Shown: positions 3,521 through 52,585 of the stretch, piece after piece
Layout: each line of letters begins with the position of its first letter
Numbering within the stretch: the stretch's first letter is position 1
From: Mobula hypostoma
Taxonomy: Eukaryota
DNA length: 64,000 nt
Direction: 5' to 3'
Assembly (NCBI RefSeq): GCF_963921235.1
Contig: NC_086097.1
Location: 4,836,001 to 4,900,000, forward strand
Position numbers and translations under genes: made by a program
The notes under the pieces: model-generated
What the model was told of the DNA's origin: nothing
Databases searched by the model: none
Seen by the model: only the letters and a program-made list of their open reading frames with translations

Positions 3521-4056
3521 CTTGTTGCTTATTGTTAAAAATATTCCTACACAGACCGAAGAAACTCAGAAATCCTCACACAGTGATTAAAATAATTACG
3601 ATTCCTAGCAAAAAAAAATCATTCAAAACTAATGATGTGATTTCATGCACTAATACAACCCCAGGAGCCATTGTGTTCAAACCATGTCATTGCGTTCTGC
3701 ACAAAACTGTCTTGGTAATGTAGGAATTGTGCAGTGCACCAGGGCAAGGCATAAGTGCACCAAATGATGGAATTGATGTTATCAACTCTTCATGGTGGAG
3801 AAGCTCCGTTAATTAACTGTAAATAAAGACAAGATTCAGCTACGTGAATAGATAGTTGAACAGTTAAAAATTATTAGCTTAAAGTCTCTATGTATATAAA
3901 TGTCCAACAATCCTGATTTATGTACAGAGTACTGAATCACACCATATGACATTAATATGCAGGCATTAAACTCATTAGACAACTCAACCCTGTCCTGATG
4001 TCGGGTCATGACTCAACATTGAGCATTCAAAGTTCAGAGTAAATTTATTATCAAAG

Positions 4057-4689
4057 GGAGGAGAAGATGGCGACGCAACACAGCTTGCAGCGGCCACTCC
4101 AGCGAATGATATCTGTTATCTGTCAAGTAGGGTGCCGTGCACAATTCTGATTTGATGGAGGCAGACGTGAGAGCACGGAGGAGCATCTGGTGAAACTTCT
4201 GAAATGCCTGTTTCGCTGTCGCTGCTACTGTGTGATCCAGAATCTCTGGAGGGGAAGGCCCCGAGTCCTCGGCTTTGCTTGTTGCTCAGCGGCTGGGGTG
4301 GGATCGAAGCTCTCGGCAGAGATGGTGCTCGGTGCTCGGTGTCGGAGGGCTGGTCGGAGGCTCGAAGTTTTCAGACGGACTCAGAGTCGGCTGCGGTCAG
4401 GTGCTTCCAATGCATTGGCAAGTTTGTGGTGCTTCCGTCTGCATGAGATGATGGGGCTATCGGGACTTGAGACTTTTATTACCGTGCCCATGGTCTGCTC
4501 TTTATCAAATTTACGGTATTGCTTTGAACTGTTGTAACTATATGTTATAATTATGTGGTTTTGTCAATTTTAGTCTTGGTTTGTCCTGTGTTTCTGTGAT
4601 ATCTTTCTGGAAGGACATTGTATCATTTTTAATGCATGCATTTCTAAATGACAATAAGTGAGGACTGAGTGTCCTCATAATCTAATCTA
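4057..4689 (+). mobile_element. Non-autonomous LINE-associated retroelement
   Basis: Starts GGAGAAGATGGCGACG (YY1-like AAGATGGCG), CpG-rich 5' half, (AATCT)n tail; interrupts another repeat at ATCAAAG...AAAGTAC. Confidence 0.55.
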
Positions 4690-5084
4690 AAAGTACTTAA
4701 AAAGCATGAGATACAAAGAAACACAATAGAATCAAACAAAAACTACATACAACAGAAACAAATGAACAATCTATGTGCAAAAGACAATAAACTCTGCAAA
4801 TACAAAAAGGAAAAATAAAACAAAAAAACAAAATAATAACAATAAATAAATAACTAGCAAATATTATGAACACAAAATGAACAATCCCTGAAGGTGAGGC
4901 CATAGGTTGTGAGAACAGTTCAGTGATGGCGTGAGTGAAGTTTAGTGAAGTTATCCCTTTTGGTTCAAGAGCCTGTTGGTTGTGGGATAATAACTGTTCC
5001 TGATCCTGGTGGAGTGGGTCCTGAGGCTCCCGTACTTTGGTCCTGATGACAGTAGTGAGAAGAGAGCATAACCTAGGAGCCGCA

Positions 5085-5660
5085 GATCTGTAAAGATGGT
5101 TAGACCACAGTTGGAATATTGTGTTCAGTTCTGGTCACCTCATTATTGGAAGGATGTAGAGGCTTTAGAGCGGGTGCAGAGGAGATGTGCAGAGAAGATT
5201 TACAGGATGCTGTCTGGATCAGAGAGCATGTCTTATGAGGATAGATGAAGAAAGCTTGGGCTTTTCTCTTTGGAGGGAAGGAGGATGAAAGGTGGCTTGA
5301 TAGAGGTATATAAGATGATGAGTTATTGGTAGAGTGGATGGTCAGAGACTTCATGCCAGAGTGGAAATGGCCATTAGGAGAGGGCATAGTTTTAAGATGA
5401 ATGGAAAAAAGTATTGGGGGGATGCTGGACATAGGTTCTTTTGCATGCAGCGTGGTAAGTGCATGGAACATGTTGGCAGCGTGGTGGTAGAGGCAGAAAC
5501 TTTACAGACATTTAAGAAACTCTTAGAGTGGCACATGGATGATAGAAAAATGGAAGACTATGTAGGAAGGAAGGACTACTTTGATTTTAGTGTAGGTTAA
5601 AAGGTCAGCACAACATTATGGGCAGAAGTGCCTGTACTGTAATTTCTACATTCTATGTTT
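5085..5660 (+). mobile_element. CR1 LINE 3' fragment, decayed
   Basis: AGACCACAGTTGGAATATTGTGTTCAGTTCTGGTCACC (RPQLEYCVQFWSP) and the downstream CR1 3' region. Confidence 0.8.
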
Positions 5661-6489
5661 AGTTAGGCATTTGTACCACATTTTAGAACATGCCTGCACC
5701 AGAGAGACATCAGAGAGGGTGTGCAAAAGAGGTATACAGTCTAACAGTGGGCGATCGCAAGACCCTGTTGGGCATTGGTGACGTGGAATGCTGAAAAGTC
5801 CAGTTGACTGGTTGTTGCTGAATGGTGAAGGAGCTCTGTGGCCTCAATCGTAGCACGGACTAAGCCTCAAGCTGCAATGTTGACTGTTTGCAGCTGCTCA
5901 GGAGGAGGCATCCGATTCGGACGCTCCACTGGAATGCCAGAGGTGGTGAGGCACAGCATCCAAGCTGGAGTCAGTGCTGACCCCTAGTGTTCACTTGGCA
6001 GAAGACAAGATGTATTGTGTCGACTGCAGACTGCTGCAACATTCATGGACTCAGGGACTTACATTATATTTTTCATGTAACTGTATTTTATTGCTGTCTT
6101 ATATGTGCTATTTGTACCTTGTGCTGCGTGTGACTGTATGTTCTGTGTTTTGCAACTTGGTTGCAAAGTAACACTGTTTCGTTTGGCTCTATTCATGGGT
6201 ATTCATGAAGGGGTGAATGATAATTAAACTTGAACTTGTATCACATTTAAAATCATTAATATCAATTAACATTGATTTGTATTTGAAGGAGAGAATAAAC
6301 TATTATACTTTTAATTGGAAAATATACTCTCTAAAGTGGAATACAAAGGCTTTATATAGTTGTATTAACTAGGTTTGCAGTGCATAATTCCTATACTTAA
6401 ATAATGCAAACTAGACATCCAGAAATGCTGAAGAGAACACGGATCTTGAAGTACACACAACTTGACCCGATATCTTCAGTGCTGAGGTC

Positions 6490-6965
6490 CTCCATTGGTC
6501 ATGGTTGACCATAGATGTTGCGTCTGAGCTGACTACGTTATATGCAAGCCAGAGCAGTACAATATGTAGAGTAATCCGATGCCCTTGCCGCAGGCTCCCC
6601 CTCTCCACGTGAATGATGAATCCAAAGGAACAGCTGGGATTGATACTGCTTAGCACCAGCTGCATCACAGGAGTTACCAGTACCTCAGGGTTTACTCTGA
6701 AGCCTTCCCCATGAGTCGGTATAGCTGCAAGGTAGTGGAGGCTTGAGATCAGAGTTTTCCTTCTCCTAGATAAATGCCAACTACAGTTAGCGGGCCTCAT
6801 CTGCCCAAAGCAACTGGTTTTAAGGTGTCAGTAACAAATCTTTGCCCTTTCTCCTGTCAGTAGACATGGTTCCATCAAGCTTCGTAACCTAACCACACGA
6901 GAAGACTAGGAGCTGGATTGGGTTGTCAGAGACTATTTGATAATCATGCTATTGGGTGCATTTAA
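6490..6965. repeat. Unclassified dispersed repeat; other copies at about 26935-27455 (inverted) and 44915-45115
   Basis: Shared blocks, e.g. GGAGCTGGATTGGGTTGTCAGAGACTATT vs AATAGCCTCTGACAATCAAATCCAGCTCC, and TGACCATAGATGTTGCGTCTGAGCTG vs TGACCATGGATTTTGTGTCTAAGCTG. Confidence 0.65.
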
Positions 6966-7133
6966 TAGGTAGTGAGGTAGTGGGAGCTTATCCCCACTAC
7001 CCCCACCCCACTGCCCCCTCAGCTATAGAAAGCCTTAGGGAACCATTTTTCAATACATTTATAGTATAAACACTACTAGTTGTGGTCAGTCTAAAAATAA
7101 AATTCAGGTTGAAGAGTGAAAGGGATGAATATA

Positions 7134-7660
7134 GACTTAGTGGGCACTGTATCAGGTATAGGAGTGGGACATGCTGTACTCCTCTGCTCCTGTAGCCCAT
7201 CCACTTCAATGTTTGACATGTTGTGCATTGAGAGATGCTTTTATGCACATCTCTGTTGTAACACGTGGATACTTGAGTTACAGTCGCCTTCCTGTCAGCT
7301 TGAACCAGTCTGGCCGTTCTCCTCTGACCTCTCCCATTGAAAAGGTGTTTTCACTCACAGAAGTGGAAGGTTTTTTTTGGGTTTTTTTGCACCATTCTCT
7401 GTAAACTCCAAAAACTGTTGTACGTGAAAATCCCAGGAGATCAACAGTTTCTAAGATACTGAAACCACCCTGTCTGGCACCAACAATCATTCCACAGTCA
7501 AAGTCACTTAGATCACATTTCTCCCCTATTCTGATGTTTGGTCTGAACAATAACTGAACCTCTTGCCTGTGCTTTTATGCATTGAGTTTCTGCCACATGA
7601 TTGGCTCGTTAGATATTTGCGTTAATGAGTAGGTGTACCTAATAAAGTGGCTACTGAGTG
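7134..7660 (-). mobile_element. Internally deleted Tc1-like DNA transposon
   Basis: Degenerate TIRs (GACTTAGTGGGCACTGTATCAGGTA / TACCTAATAAAGTGGCTACTGAGTG) flanked by TA; ORF 7278-7550 DLSDFDCGMIVGARQGGFSILETVDLLGFSRTT is a Tc1 transposase N-terminal HTH. Confidence 0.85.
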
Positions 7661-7963
7661 TATAATTTAACACTGAAATTTAAAAGCTTGAACTAGTGCT
7701 GTGTGGTGACTGCGATAGTTTCCATCTCTGACCCTTTTCATTACATGAAGGAAAATAGCATTCTGTAACAACTGTAGTTCAACAGGTGCCTAGGCTTTAG
7801 TTCATTATGCTAATTAGTGTGCATATACGGAATAGTCTTTATAGAAGCTAATTTACAATAACACACCAACACTATGTGCTCTGCACATTTGAATGATTAT
7901 GGTCAAAGACTTCATTAAAATAAATTGGGACTTATGTTAAATCTGTAATTTGTTTCCACGTAG

Positions 7964-8056
7964 GACCTTCCATGAATCTGATGTGGTAACAAACAGATGT
8001 AGACAGCAGGACCTAAATGGCTCAGTTATTTTCAATCACACAAGCATGACCCTTTG
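7964..8056 (+). CDS. Candidate host-gene exon, unidentified (TFHESDVVTNRCRQQDLNGSVIFNHTSMTL)
   Basis: Acceptor TTTGTTTCCACGTAG, donor TG|GTGGGT; only one frame is open and its phase is compatible with the candidate at 1389-1551. Confidence 0.25.
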
Positions 8057-8149
8057 GTGGGTCATGCACCAAGAAATGAGTGGAGAGTGTAGGTATGGTA
8101 AAGAAAAGAAATGTTATGCTGTCGTTAGCTCTCAACTAAAGGCTACAGC

Positions 8150-8603
8150 TCCGTCATCACATGTTGGTCCACGGCCTTCCCTTGTGCCAAGATGAAGCCA
8201 CCTTCAGGGTGCACGATCAACGCCTTATATTCTGTCCCGATAGCCTCCAAACTGATGGTGTGAATATCAATTTCTCCTTCTGGTGAAAAAAAATCCTCCC
8301 CCCTCTCCTCCCCTCTTCTTCTATTCTTCAATTCGGCCTCTTCTTACCTGGTGTCATCTTGCCTGATTCCCTCCTCCTCCCCTTTCTCCTATGGTCCACT
8401 CTCCTCTGCTGTCAAGTTCCTCCCTCTCCACCGCTTTACCTTTCCCACCCACCTGGCTTCACCTATCGCCTTCTTCCCCTCCCCCCACCCTTTTATTCTG
8501 GCATCTTCTGAAGAAGGGTTTCAGCCTGAAATATCAATTGTTTAGTCATTTCTATAGATGCTGCCTGAACTTCTGAGTTCCTCTAGCATCTTGTGTGTAT
8601 TGT
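8150..8603 (+). mobile_element. Old Penelope-like element, 3' fragment (GIY-YIG C-terminus and 3' UTR)
   Basis: GTCCACGGCCT...GATGAAGCCAC...CCTTATATTC...AGCCTCCAA similar to 48550-48660; decayed hammerhead CTGAAGAAGGGTTTCAGCCTGAAA near 8508. Confidence 0.75.
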
Positions 8604-8779
8604 CATGAAGAATCTTGGTGTTACTCTAGTTGGCTGAGGTATGAACCTCAGAATCAGATTTAGTATCACTTGCATATATTGTGGAATTTGTAATTATATA
8701 ATAATAGAAAAACTATAAATTACAGTAAGGTATGTATACAGAGAGAGCAAAAGGAAAATAGTGAGGTAGTGAACATGGA

Positions 8780-11700
8780 TTCTTGAAGCTGTTCCAAACA
8801 TATTGAGTGTGTGTCTTTACGCTCCTGTGCTTCCTCCTTGGTGGTAGCAGTGAGGACAGGGCATGTCCTTGGTGATGGGGGTCCTTAATGATGGATGTTA
8901 CCTCTTTGAGGCATTGCCTTTTGAAGATGTCCTCGATGCTGTGGAGGCTAGTGCTGGCTGAGTTTGCCACTTTTTTTGTGTAATTTATTTGTTATTGAAG
9001 TTCATCATCAAACAAACATTTCCGTAAGATGTATTTCAGATACTGTACATATATATCATATAACCATATAACCACTTTTTATGATTCTGTGCAGTAGACC
9101 CTCTATTCCAGATGATAATGCAACCAGCTAGAAATCTGCCTGAGTCTTTGGTGACATACCAAATCCCCTCAAATTCCTAATGAAATACAGCCACTGTTTT
9201 GCCTTCTTTGTAATTGCATCAATATGTTGGGCCCAGGATAAATCCTCAGAGATGATGACACCCAGGAACTTGAAACTGCTCACCCCTTCCACTGCTGATC
9301 CCTCAATGAGGACTGGAAGTTTCCTTGACCTCCCCTTCCTGAAGTCTACAATCAAATCATTGGTCTTACTAACACTGAGTGCAAGGCTGTTGTTCCGACA
9401 CCGCCCAAACAGCTGAACTATCCAGCTCCTGTACACCTCCATGTCACCATCTGAAATTCTGCTGACAATAGTTGTGTCATCGGCAAGTGTTTGAACTGTG
9501 CCTGGCCAAACAGTTGTGGGTATGGGTTTAAAGGGAGTAGAGCAGTGGGTAAACACATATCGCTGAGGTGTACCGGTGTTGATTGGCAGCGAGGAGGAGA
9601 TGTTATCCCTGATCTACACTGACTGTGGTCTTCCGATGAGGAAATCAAGGATCCCTTTTCAGAGGAAGTCAAGTCAAGTCACTTTTTATTGTCATTTCGA
9701 CCATAACTGCTGGTACAGTACACAGTAAAAACAAGGCACTGTTTTTCAGGACCATGGTGCTACATGAACAATGCAAAAACTACGCTGAACTACGTAAAAA
9801 ACAACACAGAACTACACTAGACTACAGACCTACCCCAAGACTGCATAAAGTGCACAAAACAGTGCAGGCATTACAATAAATAATAAACAAGACAATAGGC
9901 ACAGTAGAGGGCAGTAGGTTGGTGTTAGTCCAGGCTCTGGGTATTGAGGAGTCTGATGGCTTGGGGGAAGAAACTGTTACATAGTCTCTTCGTGAGAGCC
10001 CAAATACTTCAGTGCCTTTTGCCAGATGGCAGGAGGGAGAAGAGTTTGTATGAGGGGTGCGTGGGGTCCTTCACAATGCTGTTTGCTTTACGGATGCAGC
10101 GTGTGGTGTCAATGTCTGTAATGGCAGGAAGAGAGACTCCGATGATCTTCTCAGCTGACCTCACTATCCACTGCAGGGTCTTGCGATCCGAGATGGTGCA
10201 ATTTCCGAACCAGGCAGTGATGGAGCTGCTCAGGATGCTCTCAATACAACCTCTGTAGAATGTGGTGAGGATGGGGGGTGGGAGATGGACTTTTCTCAGC
10301 CTTCACAGAAAGTAGAGACGCTGCTGGGCTTTCTTTGCTATGGAGCTGGTGTTGAGGGACCAGGTGAGATTCTCCGCCAGGGGAACACCAAGAAATTTGG
10401 TGCTTTTAACAATCTCTACGGAGGAGTCGTCGATGTCTAGCAGAGAGTGGTCGTTCTGTGTCCTCCTGAAGTCAACAACCATCTCTTTTGTTTTGTTCAC
10501 ATTCAGAGACAGGTTGTTGGCTCTGCACCAGTCCGTTAGCCGCTGCACCTCCTCTCTGTATACTGACTCATTGTTCTCGCTGATGAGACCCACCACAGTC
10601 GTGTCATCGGTGAATTTGATGATGTGGTTTGAGCTGTGTGTTGCAGCACAGTCGTGGGTCAGCAGAGTGAACAGCAGTGGACTGAGCACACAGCCCTGGG
10701 GGGCCCCCATGCTCAGTGTGATGGTGTTGGAGATGCTGCTCCCGATCCAGACTGACTGAGGTCTCCCAGTCAGGAAGTCTAGGATCCAGTTGCAGAGGGA
10801 GGTGTTCAGGCCCAGTAGGCTCAGCTTTCCAATCAGTTTCTGAGGAATGATTGTGTTGAATGCTGAACTGAAGTCTATGAACGGCATTCAAACATATGTG
10901 TCTTTTTTGTACATGTGGGTTAGGGCCAGGTGGAGGGTGATGGCGATGGCATTGTCTGTTGAACGGTTGGGACGGTACGCAAACTGCAGGGGGTCCAGTG
11001 AGGGGGGCAGCAGGGTCTTGACGTGCCTCATGACGAGCCTCTCAAAACGCTTCATGATGATGGATGTGAGTGCTATGGGACGGTAGTCGTTGAGGCAGGA
11101 CACTGAAGACTTCTTCGACACGGGGAGGATGGTGGCGGCCTTGAAGCATGTAGGAACGATGGGGCTGCTCAGGGAGATGTTGAAGATGTCAGTGAGAATC
11201 TCAGCTAGCTGGTCTGCACATCCTCTGAGCACTCTGCCAGGAATATTGTCTGGTCCAGCAGCCTTCCGTGGGTTGACCCTGCACAGGGTTCCCCTCACAT
11301 CGGCCACGGTAAGACACAGAACCTGGTCGATTGGAGGAGGGGTGGTCTTCCTCGCCGCCACGTCATTTTCCACCTCAAACCGAGTGTAGAAGTTATTCAA
11401 TGCATCTGGGAGGGAGGCATCACCAGCACAGGCAGGTGTTGTCGTCTTGTAGTTGGTGATGTCCTGAATGCCCTTCCACATGCGCCGTGTGTCTCCACTG
11501 TCCTGGAAGTGGCTGTGGATTCGCTGGGCGTGTGCACGCTTTGCCTCTCTGATGGCCCGGGGCAATTTGGCCCTCGCTGTTGTTAGGGCTGTCTTGTCAC
11601 CTGCTCTGAAGGCGGAGTCACGTGTCCTCAGCAGCGCACGCACCTCCGCGGTCACCATGGCTTCTGGTTAGCGCGTGTAGTGATGGTCTTGGCCACAGTG

Positions 11701-11960: not shown

Positions 11961-12553
11961 ATCTTTGTAAATCAGATGCTTGAATAAGTAGGTACACAGT
12001 AGCTTTGCCCTTGACTTACCTTAATTTACCTGACACCAAAACCAGTTTGTACTGTCCCAACATATCAATGCAGCCGCAAAGAAGGCAAGACAGTAGCTAT
12101 ATTTCATTAGGAGTTAGAGGGGATTTAGTTTGTCAACTTCTGTATGTACTGTGGAAAGCACGCTGACAAGCTGCATCACTGTCTGGTATGGGGCGGGGGG
12201 CTACTGCACAGGACTGAGAGAAGCTAGAGAAAGTTGTAAAATTAGTCAGCTCCATCTTGGGTACTGGCCTCTGTCATATCAGAAACATCTTCAAGGAGTG
12301 GTGTCTCAGAAAGGTGGTGTCCATTATTGAGGACCCCTATTACCCAGGGCATGCCCTTTCCTCCTTGTTACCATCAGGAAGGAGATTCAGCAGCCTCAGC
12401 AATTCAGGAACAGCTTCTTCTCCACCATCTGATTCCTAGATGGACATTGAACCCATGAATACTACCTCACTTTTTGTTTAATATATATTATTTCTGTTTT
12501 TGCACTATTCTAATCTATTCAATATACATACACACATATATATACTTACTGTA

Positions 12554-12757
12554 AACAACAGGAATTCTGCAGATGCTGGAATTTCATGCAATACACATCA
12601 AAGTTGCTGGTGAACGCAGCAGGCCAGGCAGCATCTCTAGGAAGAGGTGCAGTTGACGTTTCGGGCCGAGACCCTTCGTCAGGACTAACTGAAACGTCGA
12701 CTGTACCTCTTCCTAGAGCTGCTGCCTGGCCTGCTGCGTTCACCAGCAACTTTTTTC
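12554..12757. mobile_element. Miniature Penelope hairpin element (young family)
   Basis: Inverted arms 12601-12662 and 12691-12752, nearly identical to the termini of 45173-49070; perfect 15-bp TSD TATATACTTACTGTA (12539-12553, 12758-12772). Confidence 0.92.
12651..12690 (-). ncRNA. Minimal type I hammerhead ribozyme
   Basis: Minus strand reads TAGTC-CTGACGA-AGGGTCTCGGCCC-GAAA-CGTC-AACT. Confidence 0.7.
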
Positions 12758-12919
12758 TATATACTTACTGTAGCTGATTTACTTGGTTATTTATTTATTT
12801 TTTCTTTCTATATTATTATGTATTGTATTGAACTGCTGCTGTTAAATGAACAAATTTCACAACTCATAGCGGTGATAATAAACCTGATTGTGATCCTGTT
12901 GTTGCTGTTGCAACAATGA

Positions 12920-21226: not shown

Positions 21227-21719
21227 AGGGGTGGGTGCTGAGATAAGAAACTGGGAGGTGAGAGGAAGAAAAGGAGAGGGAGGAATCTGATAGAGAGGAG
21301 AGTGGACCATGGAAGAAAGGGATGGAGGAGGGGCACTGGGGGAGGTGATAGCTAAGTGAGGAGAAGAGGTAAAAGGCTAGAGTGCGACTTGAACAGGAGG
21401 GAAAGGAGAGGGGGAAAATTGCCAGACATGGGGAAATCGATGTACATGACATCATGTTGGAGGTTACCTAGACTCTTATTTTATCACCCCACCCCCACCG
21501 ATCTGGCTTCACCTATCACTTTCTAGCTTGTCCTCTTCCCCCTCCTCCCACTTTTTTATTCAGGCATCATCCCCCTTCCTTTCCCGCTCTGAAGAAGGAT
21601 CTCGGCCTGAAACGTTGACTGTTTATTCATTTCCCTAGATGCTGCCTGACCTGCTGAGTTCCTCCAGCATGTTTTGTGTGTTGCTCTGGATTTCCGGCAT
21701 CTTCAGATTCTCTCCTATT
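21227..21719. mobile_element. Old Penelope insertion with inverted arms
   Basis: Minus arm to about 21475, then a plus arm with CTGAAGAAGGATCTCGGCCTGAAACGTTGACT and the terminal tail; TSD TACACTTGGGA (21216-21226) / TACACCTGGGA (21720-21730). Confidence 0.75.
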
Positions 21720-31000: not shown

Positions 31001-31388
31001 GCTACACAAGCTGTGGTCTGCCAGTCAGGTAGTCCATTATCCAGGATACAATGGAAGTGCCAACCAGCATTGAATGGCGCAGATCCCTCAGCAATGAGGG
31101 CTGTGTGGTATTGAAGGCACTTGAGAAATCAAAAAACATGATCCTCACAGTGCTGCTCTGCTTATCCAAATGGGAGTAGGCTCTGTATATATCCTGTGCC
31201 ATCCAAATTGCTTCTAGAAATTCCAGCCATTGCTGCTCTGCTGTCATCCCTGCCAGTGTTCTTTTCCAATCAATTCTGGCCAACTCCTCTCTCTTCCTCT
31301 GTAATTCCCTTTACTCCACTGTAATACTGATACATCTGACTTTAGCTTCTCCTTCTCAAATTACAGGGTGAATTCAATCATATTATGG
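28020..31388 (-). mobile_element. Decayed CR1 LINE interrupted by Rex1 (30030-31185) and cut off at a Penelope copy
   Basis: ORF 28338-28733 (RSHLEYC, RGDLIET), ORF 29085-29417 (DFQKAFDKVP) and IDWKRTL at 31283; further endonuclease-like remnant at about 32130-32320. Confidence 0.88.
30030..31185 (-). mobile_element. Rex1/Babar LINE, 5'-truncated
   Basis: [35 protein letters not shown]; (TATC)n tail. Confidence 0.88.
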
Positions 31389-31975
31389 CAACACACATCA
31401 AAGTTGCTGGTGAACGCAGCAGGCCAGGCAGCATCTCTAGGAAGACGTTTCAGGCTGAGACCCTTCGTCAGGACTAATTGAAGGAAGAGTGAGTAAGGGA
31501 TTTGAAAGTTGGAGGGGGAGGGGGAGATCCAAAATGATAGGAGAAGACAGGAGGGGGAGGGATAGAGCCAAGAGCTGGACAGGTGATAGGCAAAAAGGGA
31601 TACGAGAGGATCACGGGACAGGAGGTCCGGGAAGAAAGACAAGGGGGGGGGACCCAGAGGATGGGCAAGGGGTATATTCAGAGGGACAGAGGGAGAAAAA
31701 GGAGAGTGAGAGAAAGAATGTGTGTATAAAAATGAGTAACAGATGGGGTACGAGGGGGAGGTGGGGCCTTAGCGGAAGTTAGAGAAGTCAATGTTCATGC
31801 CATCAGGTTGGAGGCTACCCAGACGGAATATAAGGTGTTGTTCCTCCAACCTAAGTGTGGCTTCATCTTTACAGTAGAGGAGGCCGTGGATAGACATGTC
31901 AGAATGGGAATGGGATGTAGAATTAAAATGTGTGTCTATCCACGGCCTCCTCTACTGTACCACATCCCATTTATC
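31389..31975 (-). mobile_element. Young Penelope 3' fragment with a short internal inversion
   Basis: Nearly identical to the reverse complement of 48520-49070; flips to plus at about 31933 (TGTCTATCCACGGCCTCCTCTACTG). Confidence 0.88.
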
Positions 31976-38369: not shown

Positions 38370-38915
38370 CAGAGGAAAAAGGAGAGAGAAAAAAATTAAT
38401 GATAATAATAAATAAATAAATAACGGATGGGCTCCTCTACTGTCAAGATGAAGCTACACTCAGATTGGAGGAACAACACCTTATGGGTGACCTCCAACCT
38501 GACGGCATGAACATTGACTTAAACTTCCGTTAACACCCCACCTCCCCTTCGTACCCCATCCATTTTTTCTCTCTCTCTCCTTTTTCTCCCTCTGTCCCTC
38601 TGACTATACCCCTTGCCCATCCTCTGGGTTTTTTCCCTCCTCCCCCTTTTCCTTCTCCCTGGGCCTCCTGTCCCATGATCCTCTCATATCCCTTTTGCCA
38701 ATCACCTGTCCAGCTCTTGGCTCCATCCCTCCCCCTCCTGTCTTCTCCCATCATTTTGGATCTCCCCCTCCCCCTCCCACTTTCAAATCTCTTACTCACT
38801 CTTCCTTCAGTTAGTCCTGACGAAGAGTCTTGGCCCGAAACGTCGACTGTACCTCTTCCTAGAGATACTGCACGGCCTGCTGCGTTCACCAGTAATTTTT
38901 ATGTGTGTTGCTTGA
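38370..38915 (+). mobile_element. Young Penelope 3' fragment with a short inverted leader
   Basis: GIY-YIG C-terminal remnant (GGAGGAACAACACCTT) and a 3' UTR matching 48570-49070. Confidence 0.85.
38811..38849 (+). ncRNA. Minimal type I hammerhead ribozyme
   Basis: TAGTC-CTGACGA(38817-38823)-AGAGTCTTGGCCC-GAAA-CGTC|GACTG; predicted cleavage after 38844. Confidence 0.7.
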
Positions 38916-44070: not shown

Positions 44071-45268
44071 TTAAGTGTAGAGTTGTATCTTTGGAGAAGC
44101 GTGCTTTACCAAGACTTGATTAAAATATACAACCAAATGCTCAGTACAAAGCAGCTTATTAACAATTATGTTGTTCTCCTTTACGCTTGCGTACTGGAAA
44201 TGACATTAAACATTTTGGAATAAGATGAAGATACACGGCAGACTTTTACTCTTCAAAAGTGTGGGGGCATTATTTTCACTGGACGTCCTTGAATTATTAT
44301 GGCAGATGACTGATGCAGTTTTTCTTTGCACAAGCATAGCTCTGTGGACGAGAACGATAATGATGTGGGCAGCTTACAAAAATGACACTGGCTGAGAGGA
44401 CAAATGGGTGGAAAATGGATGTAATGACTCTAAAGGGCCTCTGCGAGCTACAGCTGTTCATGTTACATTATGATAATAGCAGTATATTACATAACCATCT
44501 TTGGCTCTGTTTCTCAAATATATTCAGAGTTTATAGACTGATATGAATTGAGAACTGCTGTTTCTGCAGTTTGTTTGAAAGTCAGAAGCTCCTATAATTT
44601 AGGTCTTAAACCTGGAGGCTGCCAGCTACATCAATAAAGTTTGCAGAAAACAGCACAATAAAATAAATTCTTCAATTTCAATACATTAAATTGATATTGA
44701 TTTTAGGATCCAGCTACTTATTTACATACCCACCAAATGATCTATAGTTCCTCGAAAAATTCTCTACCCAAGAGGGCTGAGGAGATTCAGTCACTAAGTA
44801 TATTCAAGAAGGAGACAGTTTTTAAAATGTGTTTTTATTTTTTATTTAGAGAAGTGGTGTGGAACGGATTCTTCTGGCTCACCAACCTCCTATCTGGGTG
44901 AGGTGAGGGGTCAGAGCCTTTGCTGGTCAGAACTGACCATGGATTTTGTGTCTAAGCTGTCTAGATATGCAAGCCTGGGCAGTGTGATACGGAGAGAAAG
45001 TTGTTGCTCAGGTAGCAAGCTCCCCGTTCTCCACGCATCTGATGAACCCAAAGGAATGGCAGAGACTGGCACAGTTTGGTACCAGCGGCGTTGCAGGAGT
45101 TGCCAGTCAGTTGAACCCTCTATTTAACCCTGGCCTAATTACAGGACAACTTATAATGGCTGTATAAAGGTAAACAACAGGAATTCTGCAGATGCTGGAA
45201 ACTCAAGCAACATACATCAAAGTTGCTGGTGAACGCAGCAGGCCAGGCAGCATCTCTAGGAAGAGGTG

Positions 45269-45306
45269 CAGTCGACGTTTCAGGCCGAGACCCTTCGTCA
45301 GGACTA
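45269..45306 (-). ncRNA. Minimal type I hammerhead ribozyme, left arm
   Basis: Minus strand reads TAGTC-CTGACGA-AGGGTCTCGGCCT-GAAA-CGTC|GACTG. Confidence 0.78.
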
Positions 45307-45600
45307 ACTGAAGGAAGAGTGAGTAAGAGATTTGAAAGTTGGAGGGGGAGGGGGAGATCCAAAATGATAGGAGAAGACAGGAGAGGAAGGGATGGAGCCA
45401 AGAGCTGGACAGGTGATTGGCAAAAGGGATATGAGAGGATCATGGGACGGGAGGTCCAGGAAGAAAGACAAGGTGGGGGGGGGACCCAGAGGATGGGCAA
45501 GAGGTATATTCTGAGGGACAGAGGGAGAAAAAGGAGAGTGAGAGAAAGAATCTGTGTATAAAAATAAGTAACAGATGGGGTACGAGGGGAAGGGGGGGCA

Positions 45601-47097
45601 TTAGCGGAAGTTAGAGAAGTCGATGTTCATGTCATCAGGTTGGAGGCTACCCAGACAGAATATAAGGTGTTGTTCCTCCAACCTGAGCGTGGCTTCATCT
45701 TTACAGTAGAGGAGGCCGTGGATAGACATGTCAGAATGGGAATGGGATGTGGAATTAAAATGTGTGGCCACTGGGAGATCCTGCTTTCTCTGGCGGACAG
45801 AGCGTAGGTGTTCAGCAAAATGATCTCCCAGTCTGCGTCGGGTCTCGCCAATATATAGAAGGCCACATCGGGAGCAGCAGACGCAGTATATCACCCCAGC
45901 CGACTCACAGGTGAAGTGTCGCCTCACCTGGAAGGACTGTCTGGGGCCCTGAATGGTGGTAAGGGAGGAAGTGTAAGGGCACGTGTAGCACTTGTTCCGC
46001 TTACACGGATAAGTGCCAGGAGGGAGATCAGTGGGGAGGGATGGGGGGGACGAATGGATAAGGGAGTCGCGTAGGGAGCGATTCCTGTGGAAAGCAGAGG
46101 GGGGGGGAGGGAAAGATGTGCTTAGTGCTGAGATCCCGTTGGAGGTGGCGGAAGTTACGGAGAATAATATGTTGGACCTGGAGGCTGGTGGGGCGTTAGG
46201 TGAGGACCAGGGGAACCCTATTCCTAGTGGGGTGGCGGGAGGATGGAGTGAGAGCAGGTGTGCGTGAAATGGGGGAGATGCATTGGAGAGCAGAGTTGAT
46301 AGTGGAGGAAGGGAAGCCCCTTTGTTTAAAAAAGGAGGACATCTCCCTCGTCCTAGAATGAAAAGCCTCATCCTGAGAGCAGATGCGGCGGAGACGGAGG
46401 AATTGCGAGAAGGGAATGGCGTTTTTGCAAGAGACAGAGTGAGAAGAGGAATAGTCCAGATAGCTGTGAGAGTCAGTAGGCTTATAGTAGACATCAGTGG
46501 ATAAGCTGTCTCCAGAGACAGAGACAGAAAGATCTAGAAAGGGGAGGGAGGTGTCGGAAATGGACCAGGTAAACTTGAGGGCAGGGTGAAAGTTGGAGGC
46601 AAAGTTAATAAAGTCAACGAGTTCTGCATGCGTGCAGGAAGCAGCGCCAATGCAGTCGTCGATGTAGCGAAGGAAAAGTGGGGGACAGATACCAGAATAG
46701 GCACGGAACATAGATTGTTCCACAAACCCAACAAAAAGGCAGGCATAGCTAGGACCCATACGGGTGCCCATAGCTACACCTTTAGTTTGGAGGAAGTGGG
46801 AGGAGCCAAAGGAGAAATTATTAAGTGTAAGGACTAATTCCACTAGACGGAGCAGAGTGGTGGTAGAGGGGAACTGATTAGGTCTGGAATCCAAAAAGAA
46901 GCGGAGAGCTTTGAGACCTTCCTGATGGGGGATGGAAGTATATAGGGATGGGCATTCATGGTGAAAATAAAGCGGTGGGGGCCAGGGAACTTAAAATCAT
47001 CGAAAAGTTTAAGAGCGTGAGAAGTGTCACGAACATAGGTCGGAAGGGATTGAACAAGGGGGGATAAAACCATGTCGAGGTATGCAGAAACGAGTTC
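45601..47097 (-). pseudogene. Penelope RT + GIY-YIG endonuclease, left arm
   Basis: QTKGVAMG, RYIDD, FLDL, YYKPT, linker CKRNKCYTC, GVIY...LYIGET, EH, HF, GMN-like end; frameshifts near 46200 and 46950. Confidence 0.92.
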
Positions 47098-48679
47098 CCA
47101 CACCTCAGACTTCCCGTTTCTACCTCCTACCCAAGATCCACAAACCTGCCTGTCCTGGCCGACCTATTATCTCAGCTTGCTCCTGCCCCACCGAACTCAT
47201 TTCTGCATACCGCAACACGGTTTTATACCTCTTGTTCAATCCCTTCCTACCTATGTTCATGACACTTCTCACGCTCTTAAACTTTTCGATGATTTTAAGT
47301 TCCCTGGCCCCCACCGCTTTATTTTCACCATGTATGTCCAGTCCTTATATACTTCCATCCCCCATCAGGAAGGTCTCAAAGTTCTGCGCTTCTTTTTGTA
47401 ATCCAGACCTAATCAGTTCCCCTCTACCACCACTCTGCTCCGTCTAGCGGAATTAGTCCTTACTCTTAATAATTTCTCCTTTGGCTCCTCCCACTTCCTC
47501 CAAACTAAAGGTGTAGCTATGGGCACCCGTAAGGGTCCTAGCTATGCCTGCCTTTTTGTTGGGTTTATGGAACAATCTATGTTCCGTGCCTATTCTGGTA
47601 TCTGTCCCCCACTTTTCCTTCGCTACATTGACGACTGCATTGGCGCTGCTTCCTGCACGCATGCAGAGCTCGTTGACTTTATTAACTTTGCCTCCAACTT
47701 TCACCCTGCCCTCAAGTTTACCTGGTCCATTTCCGACACCTCCCTCCCCTTTCTAGATCTTTCTGTCTCTGGAGACAGCTTATCCACTGATGTCTACTAT
47801 AAGCCTACTGACTCTCACAGCTACCTGGACTATTCCTCTTCTCACCCTGTCACTTGCAAAAACGCCATCCCCTTCTCGCAATTCCTCCATCTCCGCCGCA
47901 TCTGCTCTCAGGATGAGGCTTTTCATTCTAGGACGAGGGAGATGTCCTCCTTTTTTAAACAAAGGGGCTTCCCTTCCTCCACTATCAACTCTGCTCTCCA
48001 ATGCATCTCCCCCTATTCACGCACACCTGCTCTCACTCCATCCTCCCGCCACCCCACTAGGAATAGGGTTCCCCAGGTCCTCACCTACCACCCCACCAGC
48101 CTCCGGGTCCAACATATTATTCTCCGTAACTTCCGCCACCTCCAATGGGATCCCAGCACTAAGCACATCTTTCCCTCCCCCCCCGCTTTCCGCAGGGATT
48201 GCTCCCTACGTGACTCCCTTGTCCATTCGTCCCCCCCATCCCTCCCCACTGATCTCCCTCCTGGCATTTATCCGTGTAAGCGGAACAAGTGCTACACATG
48301 CCCTTACACTTCCTCCCTTACCACCATTCAGGGCCCCAGACAGTCCTTCCAGGTGAGGCGACACTTCACCTGTGAGTCGGCTGGGGTGATATACTGCGTC
48401 CGGTGCTCCTGATGTGGCCTTCTATATATTGGCGAGACCCGACGCAGACTGGGAGACCGCTTTTCTGAACACCTACGCTCTGTCCGCCAGAGAAAGCAGG
48501 ATCTCCCAGTGGCCACACATTTTAATTCCACATCCCATTCCCATTCTGACATGTCTATCCACGGCCTCCTCTACTGTAAAGATGAAGCCACGCTCCGGTT
48601 GGAGGAACAACACCTTATATTCCGTCTGGGTAGCCTCCAACCTGATGGCATGAACATCGACTTCTCTAACTTCCGCTAG
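47098..48679 (+). pseudogene. Penelope RT + GIY-YIG endonuclease, right arm
   Basis: FYLLPKIHK, GRPIIS, SLYTSIP, GVAMG, RYIDD, CKRNKCYTC, GVIY...YIGET; frameshift near 47228 and stops at 47399 and 48410. Confidence 0.92.
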
Positions 48680-48971
48680 GCCCCACCTCCCCCTCGTACC
48701 CCAGCTGTTACTCATTTTTATGCACACATTCTTTCTCTCACTCTCCTTTTTCTCCCTCTGTCCCTCTGAATATACCTCTTGCCCATCCTCTGGGTCACCC
48801 CCCCCCCCGTCTTTCTTCCCGGACCTCCTGTCCCATGATCCTCTCGTATCCCCTTTTGCCTATCACCTGTCCAGCTCTCGGCTCTATCCCTCCCCCTCCT
48901 GTCTTCTCCTATCATTTTGGATCTCCCCCTCCCCCTCCAACTTTCAAATCCCTTACTCACTCTTCCTTCAG

Positions 48972-49010
48972 TTAGCCCTGACGAAGGGTCTCTTCCTGAA
49001 ACGTCGACTG
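48972..49010 (+). ncRNA. Minimal type I hammerhead ribozyme, right arm (one stem I mismatch)
   Basis: TAGCC-CTGACGA(48978-48984)-AGGGTCTCTTCCT-GAAA-CGTC|GACTG. Confidence 0.7.
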
Positions 49011-49469
49011 CACCTCTTCCTAGAGATGCTGTCTGGCCTGCTGCGTTCACCAGCAACTTTGATGTGTGTTGCTGTATAAAGGTACTGTCTTTGGACTGTG
49101 GGAGGAAAACCAAACACCAGGAAGAAACACACGTGGTCAAGAGTACGTACAAACTCATTACAGAGGCTGCTCGACTTGAAGTCTGAACTCCAATGCCCGG
49201 AGCTGTAAAGCGTCATGCTGACTACTATGCTACCACAGCCTATACATTTATACAGAGAATCAAAGAACATACCCAAGTCTCTATGGGACATTAGGAAAGA
49301 GATTGCTGGGGCATTGATAAGGATCTTTTGCACCTTCCCTGGCCACAAGAGTGCTCCCAAAGGATTGGAGGATGGCAAATGTTGTTCTATTGTTAAGAGG
49401 TAGTCAGGGTAATCTTGGGGATTATGAACCAGTGAGTCTTACTTCAGTGGAATCATCTGGCAGGACAGA

Positions 49470-51799: not shown

Positions 51800-52585
51800 G
51801 GAGGAAGTACAAGCTGGCAGGTGATAGGTGAATCCAGGTGAGGGTAAGGTGCGTGAGTGGGGGAGGGGAATGAATTAAGGAGCTGGGAAATGATAGATGA
51901 AAGATGTAATGGTCTGAAGAAGATGGAATCTGATCAATGAGGAGAGAGGACCATGGAGGAACAAAATGAAAGTGATGGGCAGGTGAGGAGAAGAGAGGAG
52001 TTAAGAGGGGGAAATAGACTGGGGAATTAAAAAGGAGAGAAGGGGAAGGGAACAAATTACTAGAACTTAGAGAATTCGATTTGGAGGCCACCCAGACAAA
52101 TATAAGGTGTTACTCCTCCAACCTGAGAGTGGCCTCATTGTGGTAGCACAGGAGGCCGTGGACCAACATGTCAGAATGGGAATGTCAAGTCAAAATGAAA
52201 TGGGTGGCCGCTGGAAAACCCTGTATTTTGTGGCAGATTGAGTGAAGGTGCTGGACAAAGTGTTTCCCCAATCTGCTATACATTGAGTCTCACCAATGTA
52301 GATGTGGCCACTGGGAGCATGACCCTGACAGGGTCACAGGTGAAGTGTCACCTCACCTGGTAGGACTGTTTGTGGTGCTGAATATTGTTGATGGAGGAGG
52401 TATAGAGGCAGGTGTAGCACTTGTCTCACTTACAGGGATGTGTTGAAGGAGGAAGATCAGTGGGGAGAGATGAGTGGACCAGGGGGTCAGCTAAAGAGTG
52501 ATCCCTAAAGAAAGCAGAGAGTGGGAGGAAGGTAAAGATATAACCAATGTGGCAGGATCCCATTATGGATGGCAGAAGTTATGAA
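51800..52585 (-). mobile_element. Old Penelope GIY-YIG region fragment
   Basis: TCACAGGTGAAGTGTCACCTCACCTGG and TATAAGGTGTTACTCCTCCAACCTGAG are homologous to 45600-46160. Confidence 0.8.

Follow-up and report, generated by a model that had tools for sequence, protein, structure and literature searches.

The Palindromic Insertion and Its Element

Positions 4,836,001 to 4,900,000 of contig NC_086097.1 in the Mobula hypostoma assembly GCF_963921235.1 (64,000 nucleotides of the forward strand, hereafter the window) contain a 3.9-kb palindromic insertion derived from a Penelope-like element (PLE), with a short motif resembling a hammerhead ribozyme near each of its outer ends. The interval 45172-49072 is a single insertion of two truncated PLE copies joined head to head, since one 11-bp target-site duplication flanks the whole and a tail is present on one arm alone. 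The features of the locus, numbered from the first letter of the window, are the following.

45161..45171: left target-site duplication, TGTATAAAGGT (11 bp; sequence reading)
45172..45206, minus strand: PLE tail extension of ~35 bases, outer end of the minus arm
45207..47097, minus strand: minus arm, a 5'-truncated PLE copy with part of the reverse transcriptase (RT), the linker, GIY-YIG, the 3' untranslated region, the hammerhead and the 67-base end
45269..45306, minus strand: predicted minimal hammerhead of the minus arm
47098..47192, plus strand: single-copy centre, where the plus arm exceeds the minus arm by 95 bases on its 5' side
47193..49072, plus strand: plus arm, a PLE copy with 5' truncation, ending ...GTTGC and tailless
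48413..48679, plus strand: GIY-YIG endonuclease remnant of the plus arm, with its stop codon at 48677-48679
48973..49010, plus strand: predicted minimal hammerhead of the plus arm
49073..49083: right target-site duplication, TGTATAAAGGT, the identical 11 bases

The two arms (47193-49073 on the plus strand and 47097-45206 on the minus strand) were 95.2% identical across 1,894 bases by blastn. Reading of the open reading frames (ORFs) showed that both encode, in this order, a C-terminal part of the RT with the YIDD motif, a C-x4-C-x2-C linker and a GIY-YIG endonuclease. A plus-strand ORF with LPKIHK...GRPIIS crosses the 47098-47192 centre, and the linker lies immediately upstream of the plus-arm GIY-YIG remnant in a different frame. 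The nearest Atlas clusters bear RVT_1 and GIY-YIG, which we treat as a lead only. The ~35-base extension that marks the minus arm also trails many other copies, both at loose contig ends at 49073 and at other loci in the genome, and contig depth falls ~1000-fold beyond 49075. The insertion thus combines heavy 5' truncation, inverted partial copies, a tail of 30–40 bp at one end and a target duplication; a one-sided tail, heavy 5' truncation and an adjoining inverted truncated copy have been described as the insertion signature of PLEs (Craig et al. 2021, PMC8557442).

In both arms the hammerhead motif lies ~300 bases past the stop codon of the GIY-YIG ORF and 67 bases ahead of the end of the element. 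A motif is therefore found ~67 bases inside each outer end of the palindrome because the two head-to-head copies each retain the 3' module. As the initial annotation of this stretch had anticipated, a transcript from either strand would hold one sense motif near its 3' end, ~67 bases before the element ends.

Contigs from the runs of four organisms, aligned over 48400-49150, carry the element family at 85–99% identity, so that the family is common to several species. Their depth peaks in the final 50 bases, as 5' truncation of the element would predict.

Sequence and Predicted Fold of the Hammerhead Motifs

The minus-arm motif, whose letters were read directly and are as first annotated, runs from 45306 to 45269 on the minus strand as U-AGUC, CUGACGA, A, GGGU-CUCG-GCCU, GAAA, CG, UC and, after the predicted cut (45274/45273), GACUG. 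Helix I consists of AGUC/GACU plus a U.G pair (5 pairs in all). The core from C3 to A9 (CUGACGA, 45301-45295) is followed by a single extra A and then by a helix II of 4 pairs (G.U, G-C, G-C, U.G), two of which are of the G.U kind, with a CUCG loop. G12-A14, which fall in the GAAA box (45281-45278), precede A15.1-C15.2-G16.2-U16.1 and C17. The plus-arm motif occupies 48973-49010 on the plus strand with a predicted cut after 49005, as annotated. It had been described as a one-mismatch version, whereas three substitutions separate it from the minus arm, at 48976, 48993 and 48994. Each of these destroys a helix I or helix II pair, and nearly all aligned contigs show the minus-arm base at the three positions.

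The core boxes CUGACGA and GAAA, the cleavable triplet GUC and the palindrome ACGU (15.2/16.2) are readable in both arms. Within one molecule, helix III amounts to a single A-U pair across a two-base 'loop' and is unable to close; of the three helices of a type I hammerhead, in which helices II and III are loop-closed, only helices I and II are present. The minimal hammerhead ribozymes (min-HHRs) of PLEs are characterized by a helix I of 4–5 bp, a G10.1-C11.1 pair with an unpaired base lying between 10.1 and position 9, and a palindromic 15.2/16.2 (Cervera & de la Pena 2014, PMC4209133). The short helix I, the one unpaired base after A9 and the palindrome can be read here, together with a G at 10.1 whose partner is C or U, which agrees with the earlier identification of a minimal type I PLE hammerhead whose stem III is the palindrome ACGT. 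Judged from their letters, both motifs are minimal type-I hammerhead motifs of a PLE, a kind already known. The lowest-energy fold of the monomer (ViennaRNA, -12.2 kcal/mol) is an inactive one, in which GACG of the core pairs with CGUC. Co-folding of two copies with the same package gave just the trivial strand-swapped duplex; a double hammerhead is non-nested, of the kissing type, and beyond the scoring of such programs.

Abundance of the Motif and Conservation of the 3' Module

The strict pattern CTGANGA-N6-30-GAAACGTC matched 5 times in the window (0.01 expected) and at least 91,154 times in the 3.48-Gb assembly, compared with 1,141 matches for a reversed-pattern control. The matches in the window are copies of one repeat and therefore count as a single observation; the genome-wide excess over the control and the presence of the motif in three element families are the stronger evidence. 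A second family (B) was reached through its tail rather than through the ribozyme, by way of 13,248 exact tail anchors, and most of 30 fetched copies carried the motif as CCAGUC-CUGA(A/U)GA-A-GGGU-CUCA-GCCY-GAAA-CG-UY-GACUG. Both core boxes were retained in 13 of the 30, and at least 4 were accompanied, no more than 95 bases away, by an inverted partner. The motif is likewise found in a third family (C), whose ORF is 76% identical to that of the family of the palindromic insertion (A).

Identity between families was compared over three consecutive segments, namely the 60 bases upstream of the hammerhead, the hammerhead and the tail. It was 0.55, 0.92 and 0.71 between A and C, and 0.56, 0.78 and 0.75 between A and 13 copies of B, with a shuffle baseline of 0.57, 0.55 and 0.55. 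Similarity among the three families thus starts at helix I, and the hammerhead therefore opens a conserved 3' module.

Pairing was scored in 36 distinct copies, aligned and picked on the core boxes. C3, U4, G5, A6, G8, A9 and GAAA were invariant among them, as is to be read with the selection of copies on these very boxes; the extra A after A9 was present in at least 90%. Standard pairs filled 87.4% of pair cells, as opposed to 16–41% when the partner column was slid, a control that is biased because the structure was derived from the same sequences. The helices are near-identical in sequence across the three families, and the recurrent alternative pairs were just C-G versus U.G at pair 5 of helix I and G-C versus G.U at 10.1/11.1. 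The latter position held 23 G.U, 9 G-C and 2 A-U pairs, with 2 copies unpaired; since C11.1 sits in a CpG, its U may be either decay or a subfamily state. At 15.2/16.2, CG was found in 27 copies, and the remainder were mostly CpG transitions.

The 67 bases past the cut (49011-49072 and 45207-45268) are also conserved in A, B and C, as AGAUGCUGCC...CUGCUG.GUUC...CCAGCA, and include a GAUGCUG able to pair with an element-internal CAGCA(U) or with CAGCAUC of the tail. From these letters, the segment may be structured and serve the reverse transcriptase for recognition or as its start site. At C1:3271400-3274600, on the minus strand, a family-C copy lies directly downstream of a family-A 3' end in the same orientation, as expected if PLEs insert beside existing copies. 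Two same-strand motif pairs (L041 and L043) were considered as frames of a full-length element and proved to be separate truncated copies; no full-length element was found among the motif pairs inspected.

Two-armed Insertions and the Concordance of Their Arms

The palindrome in the window is one case of a general habit. Among the first 100 motif matches, 15 of 22 neighbouring pairs within 4 kb were in the -/+ orientation, with their 3' ends outward (P=2.5e-5). Of 18 short two-armed loci that were fetched, 17 had their own terminal duplication of 9–18 bp, and the longest terminal repeat averaged 13.1 bases, compared with 7.7 in the control; at these loci the tail is on the long arm and the short arm is tailless. 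Two-armed insertions are thus single events and a general habit of the family.

The origin of the arms was assessed with a subfamily marker, a non-CpG site five bases past the cut site, at which 78 of 100 copies have T and the other 22 have C. Loci with two complete ribozymes 40–70 bases apart number 2,251, and in the first 50 of these the arms agreed in 49 (28 T/T and 21 C/C), and one locus was mixed where 24.5 mixed loci were expected (P ~1e-13). A second sample, drawn from junctions near the cut site and judged by eye, gave 33 informative loci, of which 30 were T/T, 2 C/C and 1 mixed. Mixed pairs do occur, as in that one locus of the 50 and in 2 of 9 close pairs of another listing. Later homogenisation does not account for the concordance, since the arms are still unlike at CpG sites. 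The arms therefore come nearly always from one template lineage, and mixed-subfamily insertions are exceptional. The arms of the palindrome in the window both have C at the marker and share a rare G at 48592.

Junctions Between Arms and the Predicted Cut Site

Junctions were read in the first 50 of 281 loci with inverted tails. Eleven were perfect zero-loop palindromes centred on the predicted cut between C17 and G1.1 (9 exact, 2 with a CpG transition), and in 7 others an arm starting at G1.1 was joined to an arm starting at helix II; centres on ACGT and on GTAC were found twice each. The 11 cut-site palindromes have a long arm of ~100 bases with the tail and a short arm of 35–68 bases. The tail was confined to one arm in all 11, and 10 had their own target duplication. 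The point between C17 and G1.1 is also the centre of a six-base palindrome, GTCGAC, and junctions occur at several places of inverted complementarity: GTCGAC, ACGT, GTAC, GACT/AGTC of helix I (~15 of 100 matches listed), GAC/GUC and GGCAGCA/TGCTGCC. The last of these formed an equally dominant junction at a control position five bases downstream (~40 of the 100 listed from 609 matches). The simpler reading of these sites is that arms join wherever short inverted complementarity is available.

Single copies starting at G1.1 were not enriched, at ~20 of 100 (432 matches) versus ~15 of 100 at the control (609 matches), with start classes judged by eye in the first 100 matches listed for each and the total of control anchors uncounted. 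The junction at the control position consists of CAGGCCAGGCAG joined to CACCTC and corresponds to TGCTGCC folding back on its complement across a loop of 14 bases. Either a hot spot of the mechanism or a small hairpin element that is itself copied may lie behind it.

Other Copies Within the Window

A relaxed form of the pattern matched 15 times in the window against a chance expectation of 6.66; eight matches were family copies, one overlapped one of these and six were unrelated. Two further copies had been annotated near 12651-12690 (minus strand) and 38811-38849 (plus strand), and both were found with slightly wider limits. The core at 31444-31471 and three diverged copies are additional to that annotation.

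12553..12757: miniature two-armed insertion of the same family, with a 14-bp duplication, ACAGTAAGTATATA, at 12539-12552 and 12758-12771
12647-12690, minus strand: whole predicted hammerhead of the miniature insertion (sequence reading)
31388..31934, minus strand: single 5'-truncated PLE copy, 94% identical
31444-31471, minus strand: predicted hammerhead core, a strict match in which an 11-base deletion took away the 3' strand of helix I
38429..38912, plus strand: single 5'-truncated PLE copy, 82% identical to the plus arm
38809-38852, plus strand: predicted hammerhead of this single copy (sequence reading)
1183-1206, 8508-8531 and 21589-21612: diverged motif copies matching the relaxed pattern

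In the miniature insertion the minus arm consists of the whole hammerhead and the tail, and the plus arm starts at GAAACGTC. A third two-armed insertion, of the diverged family B, lies at ~1100-1268, where the copy at 1183-1206 stands opposite a decayed inverted hammerhead (~1140-1172), the two being separated by a small CTGATGAAGC duplication. A more diverged PLE endonuclease remnant at 52081-52581 on the minus strand is 69% identical to family A. It was considered as a further hammerhead carrier and rejected, as the copy breaks off ~290 bases past the stop codon, short of any hammerhead.

Comparison With Published Systems

The closest systems are the metazoan PLE min-HHRs (PMC4209133), with which the ray motif shares a location in the terminal repeat, the CUGANGA and GAAA boxes, a short helix I, the extra base, a palindromic 15.2/16.2 and a G at 10.1 that pairs with C or U. 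Massive copy numbers were reported for these ribozymes, as were dual motifs ~100–700 bp apart on opposite strands, and the ray motif likewise forms thousands of scattered copies and opposite-strand pairs a few hundred bases apart. It departs from the published G10.1-C11.1 pair in being mostly G.U (23 versus 9 of 36 copies), and from the Schistosoma min-HHR families, with a helix II of 7–8 bp, in the four pairs of its own helix II, two of them G.U. The number of copies in the ray genome, at least 91,154, is ~10 times the 4,000–9,000 reported for coelacanth and Xenopus.

The best-studied relative for function is the Poseidon element PAc of Anolis carolinensis (PMC11167929), which similarly combines an RT with a GIY-YIG endonuclease, a hammerhead in its repeat, the tail signature and the use of both target strands. 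Its protein, a predicted dimer, nicks and extends both strands of the target, and an internal start of reverse transcription accounts for the tail. The Anolis hammerhead was cut solely with the protein present and in dependence on C3 and G8; insertion in vitro was unchanged by catalytic mutants of the hammerhead, a set that did not include ACGU mutants. The PAc hammerhead overlaps the beginning of its ORF, in contrast to the position in the ray element after the stop codon. Reading of the ray element shows a C-x4-C-x2-C linker, a form known from descriptions of the Neptune and Nematis clades (PMC8557442).

Two other groups were compared. The type-I double hammerheads in satellite or SINE-like repeats of newt and Schistosoma (Forster et al. 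1988, described in citing papers) are similar in having an unstable helix III, with a palindrome, that needs two motifs; they differ in that loop-loop contacts accompany a helix I of 6 bp and that helix III is a real, if short, hairpin, both absent from the ray motif. Animal non-LTR retrozymes (PMC7229834; bioRxiv 10.64898/2026.07.22.740005) are also non-autonomous repeats that bear a hammerhead and are related to the terminal repeats of PLEs. Unlike the retrozymes, which form direct tandem units and circular RNAs, the short elements of the ray consist of two PLE 3' ends in inverted orientation and have target duplications.

Origin of the Motifs and of the Two-armed Architecture

We consider it very probable that the hammerheads at this locus were inherited with a PLE, that the two-armed structure arose in a single insertion and that ribozyme pairing of unrelated RNAs was not its cause. 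The motifs would be the inherited first part of a conserved 3' module in a very abundant PLE group, a module that would comprise the hammerhead, the 67 bases, the start of reverse transcription and the ~35-base tail, in this order, and be kept by every 5'-truncated copy. By analogy with published PLE hammerheads, a motif unable to close helix III alone would be cut after the predicted GUC only when two of them pair through ACGU or when protein helps, and cleavage would thus process the transcripts of tandem elements. The two-armed shape would mostly come from one template lineage per event, either by fold-back or copy-back or from a pair of RNAs with a common source, with the arms joining at short inverted complementarity. 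The ribozyme would then contribute no more than some of the complementary segments that serve for joining the arms, and pairing of unrelated RNAs by the ribozyme would not underlie the shape. At the locus itself, a transcript of either strand has the sense motif together with its complement 3.7 kb away; the resulting long hairpin would sequester the motif, and the motifs here would therefore be relics.

A number of results weigh against parts of this account. The Pfam matches of the coding region were weak and under curated cut-offs (RVT_1, E=0.0069; GIY-YIG, E=0.007). No Rfam hammerhead family (Hammerhead_1 and its relatives) matched, whether at the gathering score or, with E<=10, in searches of 4.1 kb and of 81 bases, so that the Rfam search put forward in the initial annotation as a check drew a blank at three sensitivities; this silence fits a motif without a helix III hairpin, yet it counts as failed Rfam membership. 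The same annotation had made its case depend on conservation of the core and on stem covariation across older families. The core is indeed conserved in those families, but compensatory covariation did not exceed shuffles in the 36 copies from this genome (score 0.119 versus 0.135, with 471 of 500 shuffles as high); covariation of PLE min-HHRs across animals has been published (PMC4209133). Nor was a second family with another helix III palindrome found: GAAAGCTC had 729 matches in the genome, mostly unrelated, and the non-palindromic GAAAGGTC had 1,815 against 3,187 for its control, with no separate family. Monomers of PLE min-HHRs were reported as uncut and dimers as weakly cut in vitro (PMC4209133), and no RNA-seq reads were reported to end at the hammerhead cut site in Anolis (PMC11167929). 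The window arms disagree at five positions of polymorphism within the family (48713, 48722, 48820, 48861 and 48951), where ~0.4–1 would be expected from later mutation, and for this locus alone two related templates, or a 'mixed' origin, are possible. Lastly, the zero-loop palindromes (11 of 50) are hard to produce by intramolecular fold-back and suggest two cDNA molecules.

The best Rfam match to the 81 bases at 48950-49030 was PrrB_RsmZ, on the minus strand and thus opposite the hammerhead (22 bits against a gathering score of 44; E=0.0007). It is truncated at both ends and built on AGGA-type repeats, and was set aside as most likely due to chance.

We think it unlikely that the motif is conserved for some other function, for instance as part of a 3' module structure recognised by the RT, with the hammerhead core tolerated or hitch-hiking. 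The conservation of hammerhead and tail as one block would suit such a role, as would the inactive lowest-energy fold of the monomer, the low activity in vitro, and the indifference of Anolis insertion to catalytic mutants together with the RNA-seq result; Craig et al. have moreover raised the possibility that hammerheads are mere parasites of PLEs (PMC8557442). Two points tell against a purely structural role: the core boxes, the GUC, the extra base and the palindromic 15.2/16.2 match the covarying metazoan PLE motif (PMC4209133), and the Anolis PLE undergoes C3- and G8-dependent cleavage in the presence of its protein (PMC11167929).

There is rather little chance that a tandem transcript is cut in vivo by pairing of its own two hammerheads, after which 3' modules starting at G1.1 are copied on both strands of the target. 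For it speak the 11 inverted-tail loci centred on the cut, with their one-arm tails and own duplications, the 7 more with one arm from G1.1, and the concordance of arms, which fits a single source. Their centre, however, is also the palindrome GTCGAC, and ACGT and GTAC likewise give symmetric junctions; the control five bases downstream has an equally dominant junction, single copies show no enrichment of G1.1 starts, and most two-armed loci retain both ribozymes uncut (2,251 versus 281 with inverted tails). That the cut-site-centred palindromes, and the further junctions with one arm from G1.1, are the genomic footprint of in vivo hammerhead cleavage, with the modules kept in a dimeric RT-endonuclease particle and each copied onto one strand of the target, is quite improbable in our judgement. 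If true, the footprint would be the first in vivo evidence of cutting by a PLE hammerhead and would tie the ribozyme to the inverted insertion architecture.

PLE hammerheads probably act as dimers (review PMC6765202, citing Lunse, Weinberg & Breaker 2017), and the initial annotation had gone further in suggesting that two separate PLE RNAs dimerise through the ACGU of helix III, enter one particle and are both copied at one target, giving two-armed and often mixed-subfamily insertions. This proposal we find hardly credible: the prevalence of two-armed pairs as single events with one target duplication (15 of 22 close pairs), the two cDNAs implied by the zero-loop palindromes, the five differences between the window arms, the three mixed pairs and the predicted dimer that extends both target strands in Anolis (PMC11167929) speak for it, but 49 of 50 loci were concordant, single copies starting at the cut site are not in excess, recurrent junctions lie at short inverted complementarity, the Naiad and Chlamys PLEs make tandem and inverted insertions without canonical hammerheads (PMC8557442), catalytic mutants left insertion unaltered in vitro (PMC11167929), and a 4-bp ACGU duplex is weak, with dimers of low activity in vitro (PMC4209133).

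Implications for PLE Biology

The association of hammerheads with PLEs has been published since 2014, and the ray motif adds an instance to it rather than a principle. The genome of this ray is an unusually rich natural data set, in which the motifs number at least 91,000 and small two-armed insertions, which have their own target duplications, run into the thousands. Three results go beyond the literature searched (supplementary files lay outside it), namely that the arms almost always belong to the same subfamily, that junctions fall at short inverted complementarity, which includes the ribozyme's own helices and palindromes, and that single copies show no excess of starts at the predicted cut site; the copy number, along with the arm concordance, is likewise a part that exceeds that literature. 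Together, the concordance, junction and start results constrain models of how inverted copies of PLEs arise, and they argue against the pairing of unrelated RNAs by the ribozyme.

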